DNA of 64,000 bases from positions 100,335 to 164,334 of the forward strand of contig JBHLJY010000001.1 in NCBI GenBank assembly GCA_048887225.1. Reading direction: 5' to 3'. Origin of the DNA: Candidatus Hodarchaeota archaeon. Its GTDB lineage: Archaea; Asgardarchaeota; Lokiarchaeia; Sigyniarchaeales; SOKP01. The notes beneath the pieces were generated by a model. The model worked only from the letters and a program-made list of their open reading frames with translations. It had not been told where the DNA came from and ran no database searches. Positions 4,735 through 47,050 of this stretch are shown piece by piece; positions within the stretch are counted from its first letter, which is position 1, and every line of letters starts with the position of its first letter. Position numbers and translations under genes: made by a program.

Positions 4735-5139
4735 ATGATAACTTTCGAAGAATTAAGAGTGAAAACTCCAAAAAGAGAAGTTCTTGTAAATATTACTAGT
4801 GAGATTAATGATATTGTAAGAAACAATAATATTAAAGAAGGCGTTTGTCGAATTTTTGTTCCACATACTACCGCGGGAATTACTATCAATGAAAATGCGG
4901 ACCCAGCTGTAATGAAAGATATAATAAATTATTTGAATAAATTAATACCACAGAGAGAAAGTTATTCTCATATGGAGGGAAATAGTGATGCGCATATAAA
5001 GTCTTCCTTAACTGGCCCCTCTTTAGATGTTATTGTTCACAATGGTAAATTGGTATTAGGAACTTGGCAAGGTATTATGTTTGCAGAATATGACGGCCCC
5101 CGCCATAGAAAAATATATGTACAAGTTCAAGGGGAATAA
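4735..5139 (+). CDS. YjbQ/UPF0047 family protein (secondary thiamine-phosphate synthase-like)
   Basis: 134 aa. VPHTTAGITINENADP...DAHIKSSLTGPS matches the family core. An AGGTGA SD lies 4 nt upstream of the ATG. Confidence 0.8.
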   Translation: MITFEELRVKTPKREVLVNITSEINDIVRNNNIKEGVCRIFVPHTTAGITINENADPAVMKDIINYLNKLIPQRESYSHMEGNSDAHIKSSLTGPSLDVIVHNGKLVLGTWQGIMFAEYDGPRHRKIYVQVQGE

Positions 5140-6539: not shown

Positions 6540-7361
6540 ATGATTGATAATATAAAGATTTTTGATTCACACATGCATTACATAGGAAAATTTAAAAAAA
6601 GGGATGAAACATTAATTGATTTTTTAGACAGATTTGGAATTGATAAAGCAGTTGTTATTACGTTAAATAAGGCTGCCAATAAAAATTTGCTAATTAGAAA
6701 CGATAAAGAATTTAGCGAGAAAGAATATGCTGAGAAAATGTTTGCGAAGACTCAATATGATCACGAGGAAATTAGAGAACTAATTAAAAAAAATTCAGAT
6801 AGATTAGTAGGGGTTTATTGGTTTAATCCGAGAATAGCAGATGACGAAGATTGGAAAATATTAAAAAGGTACATTAAAGACTACAATTTTAAAGGCGTAA
6901 AAATTCAGGCCTCGCTTGATAATTTGAAAATTCCAAAAGATTTGTTTCAATTAGCAGAATTTTGTATAGATTTCGACTTACCACTATTCTTTCATTTCGG
7001 ACCATCTTTTTTTTTCCAAGAGCCATTCCACGTTAAAGATGTTTATTCCTTAGTTAAAAAATACAGAGAGCTTAAATGTGTCGTTTTACATGCAGCATAC
7101 ACTATGGAATATTGTGTCAATTGTTTGAGATATTTTCCTAAGTGTTCTAATGTATATTTTGAAACGAGTTTATCTGTCCCGTATGGGATAAATATTTTGA
7201 TTAAAGTCATGGGGAATCACCGGGTATTATATGGTTCCGATTCACCAGCAGCAACTACACCAGACATAGAAATTAATAAAATCAGAATTCTTAATTTAGA
7301 TAATAACACATTAGAAAGTGTATTTTATAACAATATAAGCAATCTTATAGGTGAAACCTAA
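6540..7361 (+). CDS. metal-dependent amidohydrolase (amidohydrolase_2 / TIM-barrel) family protein
   Basis: 273 aa. It has the N-terminal IFDSHMH (HxH) motif, HAAYTMEY, and GSDSP near the C-terminus. Confidence 0.7.
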   Translation: MIDNIKIFDSHMHYIGKFKKRDETLIDFLDRFGIDKAVVITLNKAANKNLLIRNDKEFSEKEYAEKMFAKTQYDHEEIRELIKKNSDRLVGVYWFNPRIADDEDWKILKRYIKDYNFKGVKIQASLDNLKIPKDLFQLAEFCIDFDLPLFFHFGPSFFFQEPFHVKDVYSLVKKYRELKCVVLHAAYTMEYCVNCLRYFPKCSNVYFETSLSVPYGINILIKVMGNHRVLYGSDSPAATTPDIEINKIRILNLDNNTLESVFYNNISNLIGET

Positions 7362-8221
7362 TAAATCAATTTAAAATATTTGATTCACATATGCATTCTT
7401 ATGGCAAGTTCTTAAGTCCTAATAAAGATGTACTAGAATACATGGATAGATATAATGTTGAAAAAGCAATAATTACAACAGTGAATAGAGTAAAATTTTT
7501 TTCAGAAGAAAATAAAGACCAAATGAAAAGAATGTTTGAGAGTAAAAATATATCGGATATTTTAGATAATTTCAAAAAAGTTATTTTAAGAGGACAGCTC
7601 CCTCATCACGATGTAATAGATATCGCAAATAAAGCACCTGACAGAATTTTTAAACTTTTTTGGTTTAATCCTAATTTAAAACAAGAAGAGGAAGAATCAA
7701 ATTATCAAATTTTAGAAAATCATTTTAAACAAGGATTCTGTGGAGTAAAAATTCACCCAATGTTTCATATGTTTAAAATCCCTAGAGATATTTTAAAATT
7801 GGCCTCTTTTATTCAAGAATATAACAAAAATTTGATATTGTTCGTACATTCTCTACCTAAAGTCTCACTACATAGTGGGGTTTCAAGTAAAGATATAGCA
7901 AAATTAGCAATAAAGTTTCCTGATTTGCGAATAATTGTTGGGCATGCCGCATATTCAATGGAATATAGTATTGATGTAGCCTTTATTTTAAGAAAATTTA
8001 AGAATGTTTACTTTGAAACATCTGCTTCAGCATCATATGGGATATATAATATACTTAAAGCAGTTGGCCATAAACGCATATTATTCGGTTCTGACAGTCC
8101 AGTTGTATCTCCAGTTCAGCTTGAAATCGACAAAATATTGACATTGCCAATATCTAATATGGAAAAACAAGAGATATTATACAACAATGTAAGTAAGCTA
8201 CTTGAATTTTGTCGAAAATAA
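7361..8221 (+). CDS. metal-dependent amidohydrolase paralogue (probable non-ATG start)
   Basis: This is a paralogue of the 6540-7361 gene. The ORF track starts at ATG 7391, but the conserved KIFDSH of the HxH motif lies in frame upstream of it. An ATA at 7361 is preceded by GGTGA (7350-7354). The end coordinate is secure; the start is uncertain. Confidence 0.65.
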   Translation: MNQFKIFDSHMHSYGKFLSPNKDVLEYMDRYNVEKAIITTVNRVKFFSEENKDQMKRMFESKNISDILDNFKKVILRGQLPHHDVIDIANKAPDRIFKLFWFNPNLKQEEEESNYQILENHFKQGFCGVKIHPMFHMFKIPRDILKLASFIQEYNKNLILFVHSLPKVSLHSGVSSKDIAKLAIKFPDLRIIVGHAAYSMEYSIDVAFILRKFKNVYFETSASASYGIYNILKAVGHKRILFGSDSPVVSPVQLEIDKILTLPISNMEKQEILYNNVSKLLEFCRK

Positions 8222-19257: not shown

Positions 19258-19425
19258 TATCCATTTCATTAATCATACTAATAACTACTTTATATTTCTC
19301 GAAATGCATAGCTTAATGAATTTCTTTGAGATCTACAGATTAATATTTTATTAAGATCAGATGTTTATATTAATCGGCATTTATCCGTTTACAAACTAAG
19401 GAAATAATCTCTAAGGGTGAATAAA

Positions 19426-19822
19426 ATGATAAATATATGGGCAATTTTAGTTTTTATTGCGATATATTTTATATTGGGTGCTCTTTGATACTCGCCACTT
19501 CTTTTTGGTAAAATATGGGCTAAAGCGATGAACTATAATATTGATGAGTTAGAAATGAAACTAATTAATTTTATAGGGGGCTGCGATTGCTGCTTTCGTT
19601 GCTAGGTTTTTCCTTGCTCTTCTCTTAGAAATAATTGGGACTTATAATATTTTTATAGGGATTCTTGTAGCATTAGTCGTAGGAATAGGTTTCGTTTTAA
19701 CAATAGGATTTTATGACGTATCATATGAAAATAAAAATATTAAAGTATATTTAATTGATGCGGGATACCATATAGTAGCTCTGATAATTGCGGGATTAAT
19801 TCTCGGATTTTGGCAAATTTGA
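19426..19822 (+). pseudogene. DUF1761-family membrane protein pseudogene (in-frame TGA plus frameshift)
   Basis: It is absent from the ORF track. The ATG at 19426 is preceded by a GGGTGA SD. The translation MINIWAILVFIAIYFILGAL*YSPLLFGKIWAKAM has TGA (19486-19488) where the family has Trp (GALWYSP). The reading frame shifts at the G5 run 19576-19580. The hydrophobic C-terminal part continues in another frame to the TGA at 19820-19822. Confidence 0.65.
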
Positions 19823-45331: not shown

Positions 45332-45775
45332 CTATTTTTCTAATATTTTTTTCAAATTTTCTCCTTCTTCAATCATATGCTGAGTAATAGATCTTACTGA
45401 CTTCTTAGCTAGTTTTGAAAGCAGCTTGCCTATACGAAAATCAAGAGTAGCAGTGAAAATACTACCATTTTCAGTAGGTTCTATTTCAAAGGTTCCGCCA
45501 TAGAGTAATAATTTTAATGATCCAACTGTCTTAAACTCAAATAATTTATTAGAGATAAGTCTTTTTAATTTAGCCCTTAGTTTAAGTAATTCACCTTTAA
45601 CTTCTTCTTCAGTATACATTATTGAACCGACTTCATTTGGTTCTCCTTTTTCCCAATTTGCTTTTATATGTGCTGGATGCCATTCGCAATAATTATCAAC
45701 AAAATTTAATAACCAATTCCAAATTTTTTCCGGCTGGACATTTATTTCAATAGATTCTCTAAGTGTTTTAATTAT
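45332..45775 (-). CDS. SRPBCC (START/polyketide-cyclase-like) family protein, probable non-ATG start
   Basis: The track ORF (95 aa from ATG 45619) lacks the N-terminal half of the fold. The in-frame upstream sequence IIKTLRESIEINVQPEKIWNWLLNFVDNYCEWHP is open back to the stop at 45779-45781. It contains no ATG, GTG or TTG. GGTGA precedes ATA (45775-45773) and ATT. Confidence 0.55.
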   Translation of the reverse strand: MIKTLRESIEINVQPEKIWNWLLNFVDNYCEWHPAHIKANWEKGEPNEVGSIMYTEEEVKGELLKLRAKLKRLISNKLFEFKTVGSLKLLLYGGTFEIEPTENGSIFTATLDFRIGKLLSKLAKKSVRSITQHMIEEGENLKKILEK

Positions 45776-45790
45776 TGTTCACCAAATATA

Positions 45791-46954
45791 TTATTTTTTC
45801 AATAATCCTTTATCTTTTCTTAATTTTCTTTTTTCTAAGCGTTTTTTGACAACACAATATACCTCGCCTGTCATCATTGTCATAAGACAAGAATTACAAC
45901 TAATACAGAGGGCTGGTGAAAGATCGCCGTTCTTCCAACGATTTGGGAGATCCGGCTCGTAAATCAATGGTCTACACATCGATATAAAATCTGAGTGATT
46001 CTCTTTGAGAATTTTTTCGGCAGATATAGGATTTTTAATTCCTCCTACGAGAATTAACTTACAATGATTCATTATCGGCTTTAATTCTTTAGCGGTTGGT
46101 AGAAAGTAATTCTCATCCTCTGGTGTTTTAATCATTTTGCTGGGGATTGCGTTTCTTACCTCTGTCATCATCTCACTACCTCCTCCACTCGGCTCAATCG
46201 CATCATATCCCGTGTCTACAAGAATTTTAGTAATTTTTTTTGCTTCAGTTATGGTGAGACCACCTGGAACAAAATCATCAGTTTGTAATTTGATAATAAT
46301 AGGAAAATTTTTTCCAACCTCGTCTCTAAGTTGATTGTAAATATCAACGAAGATTTTTGTTCGGCTTTTAGTATCTCCTCCATATTTATCTTCCCGTCTG
46401 TTTATGTGAGGTGAAATAAAATTGTTTAGTAAATACCCATGAGCGGCGTGTAATTGTACCATATCATAGCCAGTTTCGTAAGCCCTCATTCCTGCTCCTA
46501 CAAATTTTTCAATAATTTCTCCAATTTCTTCGGCTGTCAATTCTCGTGGTATTAAATTTGTTGCTTTATTTAGTATTGGTGAGGGGCCTACAGGAGGATA
46601 TTTAGGATGAATCCCTTGACGACCAATATGAACTAATTGGGCTGCAATTTTTACGCTAGAATAATTGTGAACCGCCTCAACTAATTGTTTTTGTCCTGAA
46701 ACATAAGAATCTTCATATAAATAAGCCTGATTTTGGCTACCTGAACTTTTAGGATCTACAGCAATAGCACCCGTGATTATTAATCCTGTGCCACCTTGAG
46801 CTAAGTCGGTATATAATTTTATAAGTCGATCGGTAACGTAGCCATCTTTAGTCGCCCTTTTTTCGTACGTCGCAGACCGGACAATTCTATTTTTAATTTG
46901 GACGTTTCTTATTTTTCCAGGACGAAAAAGATATTTTAATTCTATTTTAATCAC
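45791..46954 (-). CDS. Old Yellow Enzyme family NADH:flavin oxidoreductase (2,4-dienoyl-CoA reductase-like) with C-terminal Cys motif
   Basis: 387 aa with a GTG start. It carries IKNRIVRSAT and HAAHGYLLNNFISPHINRREDKYGG, with CISCNSC...C at the C-terminus. Confidence 0.85.
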   Translation of the reverse strand: MIKIELKYLFRPGKIRNVQIKNRIVRSATYEKRATKDGYVTDRLIKLYTDLAQGGTGLIITGAIAVDPKSSGSQNQAYLYEDSYVSGQKQLVEAVHNYSSVKIAAQLVHIGRQGIHPKYPPVGPSPILNKATNLIPRELTAEEIGEIIEKFVGAGMRAYETGYDMVQLHAAHGYLLNNFISPHINRREDKYGGDTKSRTKIFVDIYNQLRDEVGKNFPIIIKLQTDDFVPGGLTITEAKKITKILVDTGYDAIEPSGGGSEMMTEVRNAIPSKMIKTPEDENYFLPTAKELKPIMNHCKLILVGGIKNPISAEKILKENHSDFISMCRPLIYEPDLPNRWKNGDLSPALCISCNSCLMTMMTGEVYCVVKKRLEKRKLRKDKGLLKK

Positions 46955-47050
46955 CTAAATAAATTTATATACTAATATTTTTATTGTTTTTTGATTTATA
47001 ACATTCATATTTCAATAAAGTCAATACTTACAATTATAAAGGAAAGATAA

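Follow-up and report, generated by a model that had tools for sequence, protein, structure and literature searches.

Initiation at AUU or AUA is well known in bacteria and organelles, as are near-cognate starts in eukaryotes. The Escherichia coli genes infC and pcnB begin with AUU, AUA or AUC, codons that count among the alternative initiators of translation table 11. A start of this kind is described here for ORF2, the second of two amidohydrolase_2 genes in a 64,000-nucleotide stretch of contig JBHLJY010000001.1 (assembly GCA_048887225.1, positions 100,335 to 164,334, forward strand) from Candidatus Hodarchaeota archaeon, an Asgard archaeon of the GTDB class Lokiarchaeia; the whole stretch is referred to as the window. 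Translation of ORF2 very probably starts at a near-cognate ATA at positions 7361–7363, placed by a Shine–Dalgarno (SD) motif, and not at the first ATG at 7391. The observations behind this reading are the anatomy of the start region, the homology of the start position among related genes, conservation at the protein level, purifying selection and recurrence at other loci.

As in infC and pcnB, the ORF2 start would be SD-led, with a third-position near-cognate codon that is read by the initiator tRNA and conserved among relatives. The two E. coli genes are isolated bacterial cases, and the infC codon is tied to IF3 autoregulation. The Asgard starts, in contrast, belong to a host with eukaryote-type factors (aIF1, aIF1A and aIF2), are found in at least three unrelated families, and have a codon that co-varies with the presence or absence of an SD motif.

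Initiation at GUG and UUG already places non-AUG codons on archaeal ribosomes, with and without leaders. These codons vary the first base, whereas the Asgard codons AUA, AUU and AUC vary the third and are unlisted as archaeal starts in the reviews consulted. Ribosome profiling in Haloferax volcanii assigned ~30% of putative alternative initiation sites to near-cognates of AUG, which were set aside as possible false positives (PMC7261190). Those sites likewise suggest that archaeal ribosomes can start on near-cognates; they are, however, alternative sites and not the sole start of conserved genes, and neither an SD rule nor conservation was shown for them.

Eukaryotic near-cognate initiation (CUG, ACG, AUA and other codons) involves the same factor family and the same kind of codon–anticodon mismatch. 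Among archaea, the Asgard group is the one most closely related to eukaryotes. Eukaryotic ribosomes find the codon by scanning and context, whereas the position of the Asgard codon would be set by an SD motif 5–6 nt upstream. The role of eIF1 in policing near-cognate initiation is cited in PMC6237735.

Anatomy and product of ORF2

ORF1 and ORF2 are amidohydrolase_2 paralogues in tandem, with ORF2 in frame -1 relative to ORF1 (Table 1). The N-terminus of ORF1, MIDNIKIFDSHMHYIGKF, is as an earlier sequence-only reading of the window had given it; its opening codons are ATG ATT GAT AAT ATA AAG ATT TTT GAT TCA CAC ATG CAT (MIDNIKIFDSHMH), and it ends at TAA 7359–7361. The SD motif AGGTGA lies within the last codons of ORF1, and its TGA (7352–7354) is the in-frame stop that bounds ORF2 upstream. 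From this stop, the ORF2 frame reads AAC CTA ATA AAT CAA TTT AAA ATA TTT GAT TCA CAC ATG CAT, or N L I N Q F K I F D S H M H. The distance from AGGTGA to the ATA is exactly 6 nt, and the ATA shares one base with the ORF1 stop (TAATA).

The sequence-only reading had also placed the first ATG of ORF2 at the Met inside the HxH motif, the conserved KIFDSH upstream of it with no ATG, GTG or TTG available, and the SD core GGTGA 6 nt before the ATA. Each of these placements holds when the frame is followed codon by codon from TGA 7352. Between that stop and ATG 7391 there is no ATG, GTG or TTG, no SD-like sequence precedes ATG 7391, and the first His of the DxHxH motif is encoded by CAC 7388–7390, immediately before this ATG.

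In the mechanism proposed for ORF2, AGGUGA would pair with the 3′ end of 16S rRNA, and this pairing would bring the codon that follows after 6 nt into the P site. The initiator Met-tRNA (anticodon CAU) would then pair with the A and U of AUA, the mismatch at the third base being tolerated. The product would have 286 residues, presumably with Met first, and would contain the complete β-strand 1 and the DxHxH motif. In the window, ribosomes that finish ORF1 may also re-initiate at the overlapping ATA (TAATA) and so aid the ORF2 start. Any effect of the start type on expression level is conjectural.

Amidohydrolase_2/ACMSD-type TIM-barrel hydrolases (PF04909; PDB 3cjp, 2dvt, 4ofc) carry a DxHxH motif that closes strand 1 a few residues into the chain, and ORF1 and ORF2 resemble them in this respect. 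Both proteins match the PF04909 profile above its gathering score (E = 7.9e-17 for ORF1 and 4.5e-16 for ORF2). An AlphaFold2 model of the extended ORF2 has a mean predicted local distance difference test score (pLDDT) of 89.7, its first and second blocks of ten residues averaging 86 and 93, and residues 8–14 (I F D S H M H) form the first barrel strand. The best Foldseek matches of this model are 3cjp_A (E = 2e-13), 2dvt and 4ofc; besides 3cjp, the matches are to ACMSD-type decarboxylases and hydrolases. In the closest solved relative, PDB 3cjp_A, the family profile aligns D-x-H-x-H with DGHTH at residue 6. The assignment of the Asgard subfamily to this family concerns the product and not the start codon.

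In the (β/α)8 barrel, the DxHxH that closes strand 1 requires that translation begin upstream of ATG 7391; a start at that codon would drop strand 1 and the first His. Some members of the amidohydrolase_2 family are metal-independent.

The tandem paralogues, their 1-nt overlap and the -1 frame of ORF2 would also fit a fusion of ORF1 and ORF2 by programmed frameshifting or stop readthrough. This reading is scarcely credible: the junction (GGT GAA ACC TAA TAA) contains no slippery X XXY YYZ heptamer, the ORF1 frame is closed by two consecutive TAA stops, and the ORF2 frame is shut by TGA 7352, with a second stop, TAA 7328, ahead of it. Moreover, most loci that share this start anatomy lack the tandem pair, and across the loci TAA, TAG and TGA all occur in frame ahead of the start. 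With both frames shut and no slippery site, a fusion was rejected.

Start codons and SD motifs among orthologues

The start of ORF2 was compared with those of 80 orthologous loci from species-representative genomes, nearly all of them Asgard metagenome-assembled genomes, by an upstream in-frame walk at each; with the window, 81 loci were covered. A canonical start is absent from 41 of them. Forty of these carry GGTG, and the remaining one (L034, in which the motif reads GGCGA) has neither feature. A canonical start, mostly ATG with a few TTG, and no GGTG were found in 37 loci, and both features together in only three. The codon 6 nt past GGTG(A/T) in the 40 SD-bearing loci without a canonical start is ATA in 25, ATC in seven, ATT in three, GTA in four and TTA in one, and none of the 43 loci with the SD motif has ATG at this position (SD+6).

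The position of this codon is fixed with respect to the protein. From the end of the GGTG(A/T) pentamer to the Asp codon the distance is 33 nt in 38 of the 43 GGTG-bearing loci; it is 27 nt in the window and L001 and 36 nt in L002–L004. In the 33-nt loci, the SD+6 codon coincides with the ATG of 30-odd SD-less orthologues. The flanks of the two kinds of start are homologous, as can be seen from L015 on the SD-less side (aatAGGTttatt ATG atc tct aga; also aatttaatAGGTttatt-ATG-atc-tct-aga) and L017 on the SD side (aatAGGTGtatt ATA ata tcc aga; also aatttaatAGGTGtatt-ATA-ata-tcc-aga). Over the 40 nt upstream that were compared, the sequence homologous to the SD motif is degraded in the ATG-bearing orthologues (AGGTT, AGATT, GGATT, ATTAT).

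In-frame stops narrow the choice further at several loci. A TAA stands at SD+3 in L020 and L024, a TAA at SD+0 in L012 and L021, and a TAG at SD+0 in L011; at these five loci, therefore, the ATT or ATC at SD+6 is the first possible start. The sequence-only reading had proposed initiation at ATA and had suggested a comparison of orthologues, and the proposal is supported by the sequences so compared: SD-less orthologues bear ATG at the codon homologous to ATA 7361, and SD-bearing orthologues have ATA, ATC or ATT.

The codons between the SD motif and the first internal Met behave as coding sequence. Those after the start, Ser-Arg-Asn-Asp-Phe-Lys, are kept as amino acids with synonymous changes, and in the non-canonical loci the codons of the motif vary synonymously as well (TTT/TTC, AAA/AAG with AGA, ATT/ATA/ATC, GAT/GAC and CAT/CAC). 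The upstream F-K-I-F-D-x-H is conserved as protein among sequences that are only 50–75% identical.

These data bear on the possibility that ORF2 is translated from ATG 7391, which would give 276 residues without strand 1 or the first His and would make the upstream similarity a relic of duplication. ATG 7391 is the first canonical start and the annotated one, and similarly truncated calls are found for 36 of the best 120 database homologues listed, which are called from an internal Met (MH.., MSP.., MDR..) and lack DxHxH; the other 84 start a few residues before F-K-I-F-D-A-H-x-H. Initiation at ATG 7391 is nevertheless very unlikely. The codon has no SD motif, and the residues upstream of it are conserved as protein with synonymous codon variation and form barrel strand 1 in the predicted structure. 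Most orthologues have HLH and not HMH, so that no Met is found there and the next one lies at least 17 residues further on, with a corresponding further loss of sequence. Truncated calls are, in turn, the expected output of a gene finder limited to ATG, GTG and TTG. The alternative that the sequence-only reading had left for ORF2, namely loss of its first metal ligand, is unlikely for the same HLH pattern and in view of the purifying selection on these genes.

A change of the start codon from G to A at its third base is a common inactivating mutation, and the genome is AT-rich, so ORF2 might be viewed as a decaying gene that lost its ATG and is untranslated. However, ORF2 is intact over 286 codons and retains the family-invariant columns. 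The ratio of nonsynonymous to synonymous substitution rates (dN/dS) is 0.08–0.26 in seven orthologue pairs with non-canonical starts: 0.26 for ORF2 against L001, 0.19 against L002, and 0.08–0.12 in the other five. Genes with such starts are functional, because these values are low, and ORF2, on the same evidence, is a functional amidohydrolase_2 gene. Moreover, 40 species-level genomes have kept this start state, which two other families show as well. Decay of ORF2 is highly improbable, and this reading was excluded by the dN/dS values and the intact open reading frames (ORFs).

Overlapping stop/start pairs are a known archaeal arrangement for translational coupling, and re-initiation is elsewhere less demanding of the start codon. 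The ATA might thus work only through coupling, with ribosomes that terminate on ORF1 re-initiating at TAATA and free small subunits failing to do so. Like the ATGA and TAATG pairs of coupled genes, the stop overlaps the start in the window and in L001 (TAATA) and in L002–L004 (ATAA); unlike those pairs, the start is a codon other than ATG, and an overlapping upstream gene is lacking at most orthologous loci that share the start anatomy. A paralogue lies directly upstream in 8 of the 81 loci (the window, L001–L004, L067, L074 and L075), and the only non-canonical loci with one are the window, L001–L004 and, weakly, L017. The other non-canonical loci mostly have gaps of 50–200 nt or a divergent neighbour, yet they keep ATA, ATT or ATC (ATH) at SD+6. 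Furthermore, a complete SD motif is retained within the coding sequence of ORF1, where pure re-initiation would not need it. Strict dependence on coupling is accordingly unlikely. As so few loci have an upstream paralogue, coupling is not the general cause, a role ruled out by the upstream neighbours mapped in the 81 loci, and is at most a local helper that may contribute in the window and in L002–L004. Archaeal polycistronic re-initiation is mentioned in PMC12993045.

The codon could also be made cognate by other means, such as reassignment of AUA to Met, A-to-I editing (to AUI) or a second initiator tRNA with another anticodon. No support for such means was found in these sequences; a precedent is that AUA encodes Met in several mitochondrial codes. 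In the orthologues, the conserved Ile of K-I-F-D is written as ATA at some loci and as ATT or ATC at others; ATA therefore encodes Ile and the code is not reassigned, which rules out that variant. As ATT, ATC and CTG also occupy the start position, neither editing nor one extra tRNA would cover all cases, and the likelihood of any such device is negligible. No tRNA genes or structured RNAs were found in the 64-kb window, and hence no initiator tRNA there.

Several points weigh against initiation at ATA. Reviews give AUG, GUG and UUG as the only archaeal start codons (PMC7531240), and in Sulfolobus and Pyrococcus aIF1 has been reported to select against start codons other than the canonical ones. 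In the public annotation, ORF2 begins at ATG 7391. A lone ATA is weak evidence: ATH (Ile) codons are common in DNA of ~30% G+C, and SD+0 or SD+3 is occupied by a further one in 30–40% of loci, so that the exact codon is fixed by spacing and homology and not by uniqueness. At L041, the sequence reads AGGTGA ttt aac TTA caa aaa caa aac tac aga att (L041:2470-2520) with an intact ORF, and no near-cognate of ATG precedes the conserved motif; in its sister loci L040, L050, L057 and L062, the SD+6 codon is GTA and the SD+3 codon is ATT or ATC. Finally, the association between the SD motif and a non-canonical start (Fisher p = 2e-18 over the 81 loci) was calculated with shared ancestry ignored.

On a rough neighbour-joining tree, Fitch parsimony requires at least nine changes between the state with SD and a non-canonical start and the state with a canonical start and no SD; the association is therefore not one inherited event. 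The degraded SD sequence of the ATG-bearing orthologues and the lack of ATG at SD+6 behind an intact GGTG suggest an evolutionary trade-off between the strength of the SD motif and that of the start codon. Recurrence at one position in 40 orthologous loci, together with the two other families, is not explained by chance. The case for the ATA start has its weight because a fixed position, homology with ATG, bounding stops and recurrence come together.

Some features of the compared sequences concern their provenance. The window contig is labelled Hodarchaeota, whereas L001, whose ORF2 orthologue is 93–94% identical in protein sequence, is labelled Thorarchaeota. L053 is labelled Nanopelagicaceae (Actinomycetota) yet is closely similar to the Asgard locus L042, and L077 (Desulfobacterales, 42% identity) is possibly a genuine homologue from a bacterium. 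The European Nucleotide Archive entry P0364 (287 aa, in the same 90% cluster as ORF2) has the ORF1 N-terminus (MIDNIKIFDSHMH) on an ORF2-type body; it is either a natural recombinant of the tandem paralogues at the shared KIFDSHMH or the result of an assembly collapse.

The same start anatomy in other genes

The window and all loci were scanned for SD motifs that precede long ORFs. A Rab-like small GTPase gene adjoins many of the orthologous loci, and in 20 of them an SD motif precedes ATA, ATT or ATC in this gene and the P-loop is reached without a usable canonical start (Table 1). An SD-less copy with a canonical start, mostly ATG, is found in 17 loci. Exchange of the codon can be seen between close relatives: AGGTGttaaag-ATG-tcg-tcg-tat in L047, L054 and L058 corresponds to AGGTGttaaag-ATA-tcg-tcg-tat in L042, L053 and L062, and to AGGTGtttaag-ATA-tcg-tca-tat in L064. 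These seven copies have tblastn identities of 95–97% to a common query. The Ras domain starts at residue 9 of the ATH-started GTPase.

On the reverse strand of the window, an SRPBCC (Polyketide_cyc2) gene repeats the anatomy of ORF2 with ATT as its putative start (GGTGA-acaata-ATT). Its first canonical start, ATG 45619, lies 51 codons downstream, and the peptide that spans it is TLRESIEINVQPEK. The Polyketide_cyc2 domain covers aa 5–130 of the ATT-started protein, and most of the 120 homologues listed open with MKTL(R/K)ESIEI, their Met being aligned with the ATT of the window. The orthologue in L082 (AGGTGA-attaaa-CTG-aaa-acg-ctt) has CTG where homologues have Met. NCBI starts the window gene (MFX0186228.1) at ATA 45775, one codon ahead of the favoured ATT. 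A truncated SRPBCC homologue, P0219 (L081:1340-1400), was rejected as a further case, as it has a 1-nt insertion (gggaaatc) behind a normal AGTGA-attaaa-ATG; therefore, not every truncated database entry reflects an unusual start, and some are frameshifts or sequencing errors.

An OYE-type flavin oxidoreductase gene is a possible third non-canonical start in the window, and it is ambiguous because its only canonical start is a GTG embedded in its own SD motif. By a regular-expression search, 65 of the 120 homologues listed have an LFxP-type motif at offset 5 (MELKxLF form), and the ATA of the window aligns with that Met. A membrane-protein family found on the reverse strand of L069 (3727), L070 (1536) and L071 (3652) has (A/T)GGTGA, 6 nt and then ATT aga aaa ata ATG; by its spacing the SD motif suits the ATT and not the ATG four codons on, so this is possibly another case. 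The LarA-like gene of L001 was flagged by the SD scan and dismissed, as it has an ordinary ATG.

SD motifs are also in ordinary use, because canonical SD-led genes are present. The Pyrococcus abyssi aEF1A mRNA has GGUGA-UUUAA-AUG. Among the Asgard loci, a 320-aa family has AGGTGA-ttga-ATG, and the window has canonical SD-led starts at 4735 and 38548; the spacing is 4–5 nt in such genes, against 6 nt for the ATA of ORF2. The sequence-only reading had cited two further uses of the SD motif, of which GGTGA-aatt-ATG at 4735 stands, whereas GGGTGA-ataaa-ATG at 19426 is real but opens an ORF of only 23 codons. This hydrophobic ORF (19416–19497, forward strand; MINIWAILVFIAIYFILGAL followed by a stop) may encode a small membrane peptide with a strong SD motif. 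In the window, whose G+C content is ~30%, most genes have AT-rich upstream sequence, no SD motif and an ATG or TTG start, and look leaderless or short-leader. About nine starts have an SD motif, and two or three of these are non-canonical.

Table 1. Features of the window and of orthologous loci that are discussed in the text
Feature	Position or loci	Strand	Remarks
ORF1, upstream amidohydrolase_2 paralogue, 273 aa	6540..7361	+	ATG start, no SD; PF04909
SD motif AGGTGA, within last codons of ORF1	7349..7354	+	same motif in same register in 43/81 orthologous loci
ATA, proposed initiation codon of ORF2	7361..7363	+	6 nt past GGTGA; matches ATG of SD-less orthologues
Ten codons (I/M N Q F K I F D S H) 5′ of first ATG	7361..7390	+	β-strand 1 and first His of DxHxH
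First ATG, middle residue of HxH, no SD	7391..7393	+	start in public annotation (276 aa, MFX0186194.1)
ORF2 as proposed, 286 codons and stop TAA 8219–8221	7361..8221	+	amidohydrolase_2 TIM-barrel protein
SRPBCC (Polyketide_cyc2) gene from putative start ATT 45772–45770	45332..45772	-	6 nt past GGTGA
GGTGA SD motif of SRPBCC gene	45779..45783	-	its TGA is again the in-frame upstream stop
OYE-type flavin oxidoreductase, GGTGA (46955–46951)-ttaaa-ATA (46945–46943)	46943..46955 (gene 45791–46955)	-	possible start
Rab-like GTPase genes with SD and ATH	L011, L040, L042, L044, L046, L048, L050, L051, L053, L055, L056		AGGTG(T/A), 5–6 nt, ATH; ~3.1–4.4 kb into each locus
Rab-like GTPase genes with SD and ATH, remainder	L060–L062, L064, L065, L069, L071, L072, L078		AGGTG(T/A), 5–6 nt, ATH; ~3.1–4.4 kb into each locus

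Consequences for annotation and initiation in Asgard archaea

Taken over these families, SD-led genes of Lokiarchaeia-type Asgard archaea appear commonly to use AUA, AUU or AUC, and once CUG, and their SD-less orthologues AUG. Judged by the sequences compared, the ATA start of ORF2 is thus a pattern across the lineage and not a single-gene oddity. Searches of the literature, incomplete in coverage, yielded no account of Asgard genes that start at AUA, AUU or AUC; this is absence of evidence only. The principle is known elsewhere; as far as the literature found goes, three aspects are new: that Asgard archaea employ it, that it extends to unrelated families, and that lineages have switched repeatedly between SD with AUH and AUG with no SD.

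Gene finders that accept only ATG, GTG and TTG would shorten such genes, and many Asgard proteins may be annotated too short. ATH-started GTPases would be called from a TTG one to three codons before the P-loop or from a GTG inside the SD motif, and in four GTPase loci the call would fall 70–110 codons downstream. Mis-called starts would distort domain inventories, structure predictions and phylogenies for Asgard proteins. SD sequences, according to reviews, look rare in the annotated Lokiarchaeon genome; if SD-led genes often have near-cognate starts, this apparent rarity may be partly an annotation artefact.

A broader and more doubtful proposal is that SD-led initiation in Lokiarchaeia-type archaea is a distinct mode that is mainly positional, in which the codon 5–6 nt past GGUGA is used with loose regard to its identity. 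AUA, AUU, AUC and CUG are documented at the site set by the SD motif, and GUA and UUA in a few loci. If this proposal were true, a strong SD motif would go with a decayed start codon and AUG with a decayed SD motif, and a sizeable share of SD-led Asgard genes, including those for small GTPases that are counted as eukaryotic signature proteins, would be N-terminally mis-annotated. A distinct mode of initiation would then exist in the closest archaeal relatives of eukaryotes.

Asgard archaea bear start-codon proofreading factors of the eukaryotic type. The repeated switching between SD with AUH and AUG with no SD may serve as a natural experiment on the respective parts of the SD motif and of codon–anticodon pairing in start selection.

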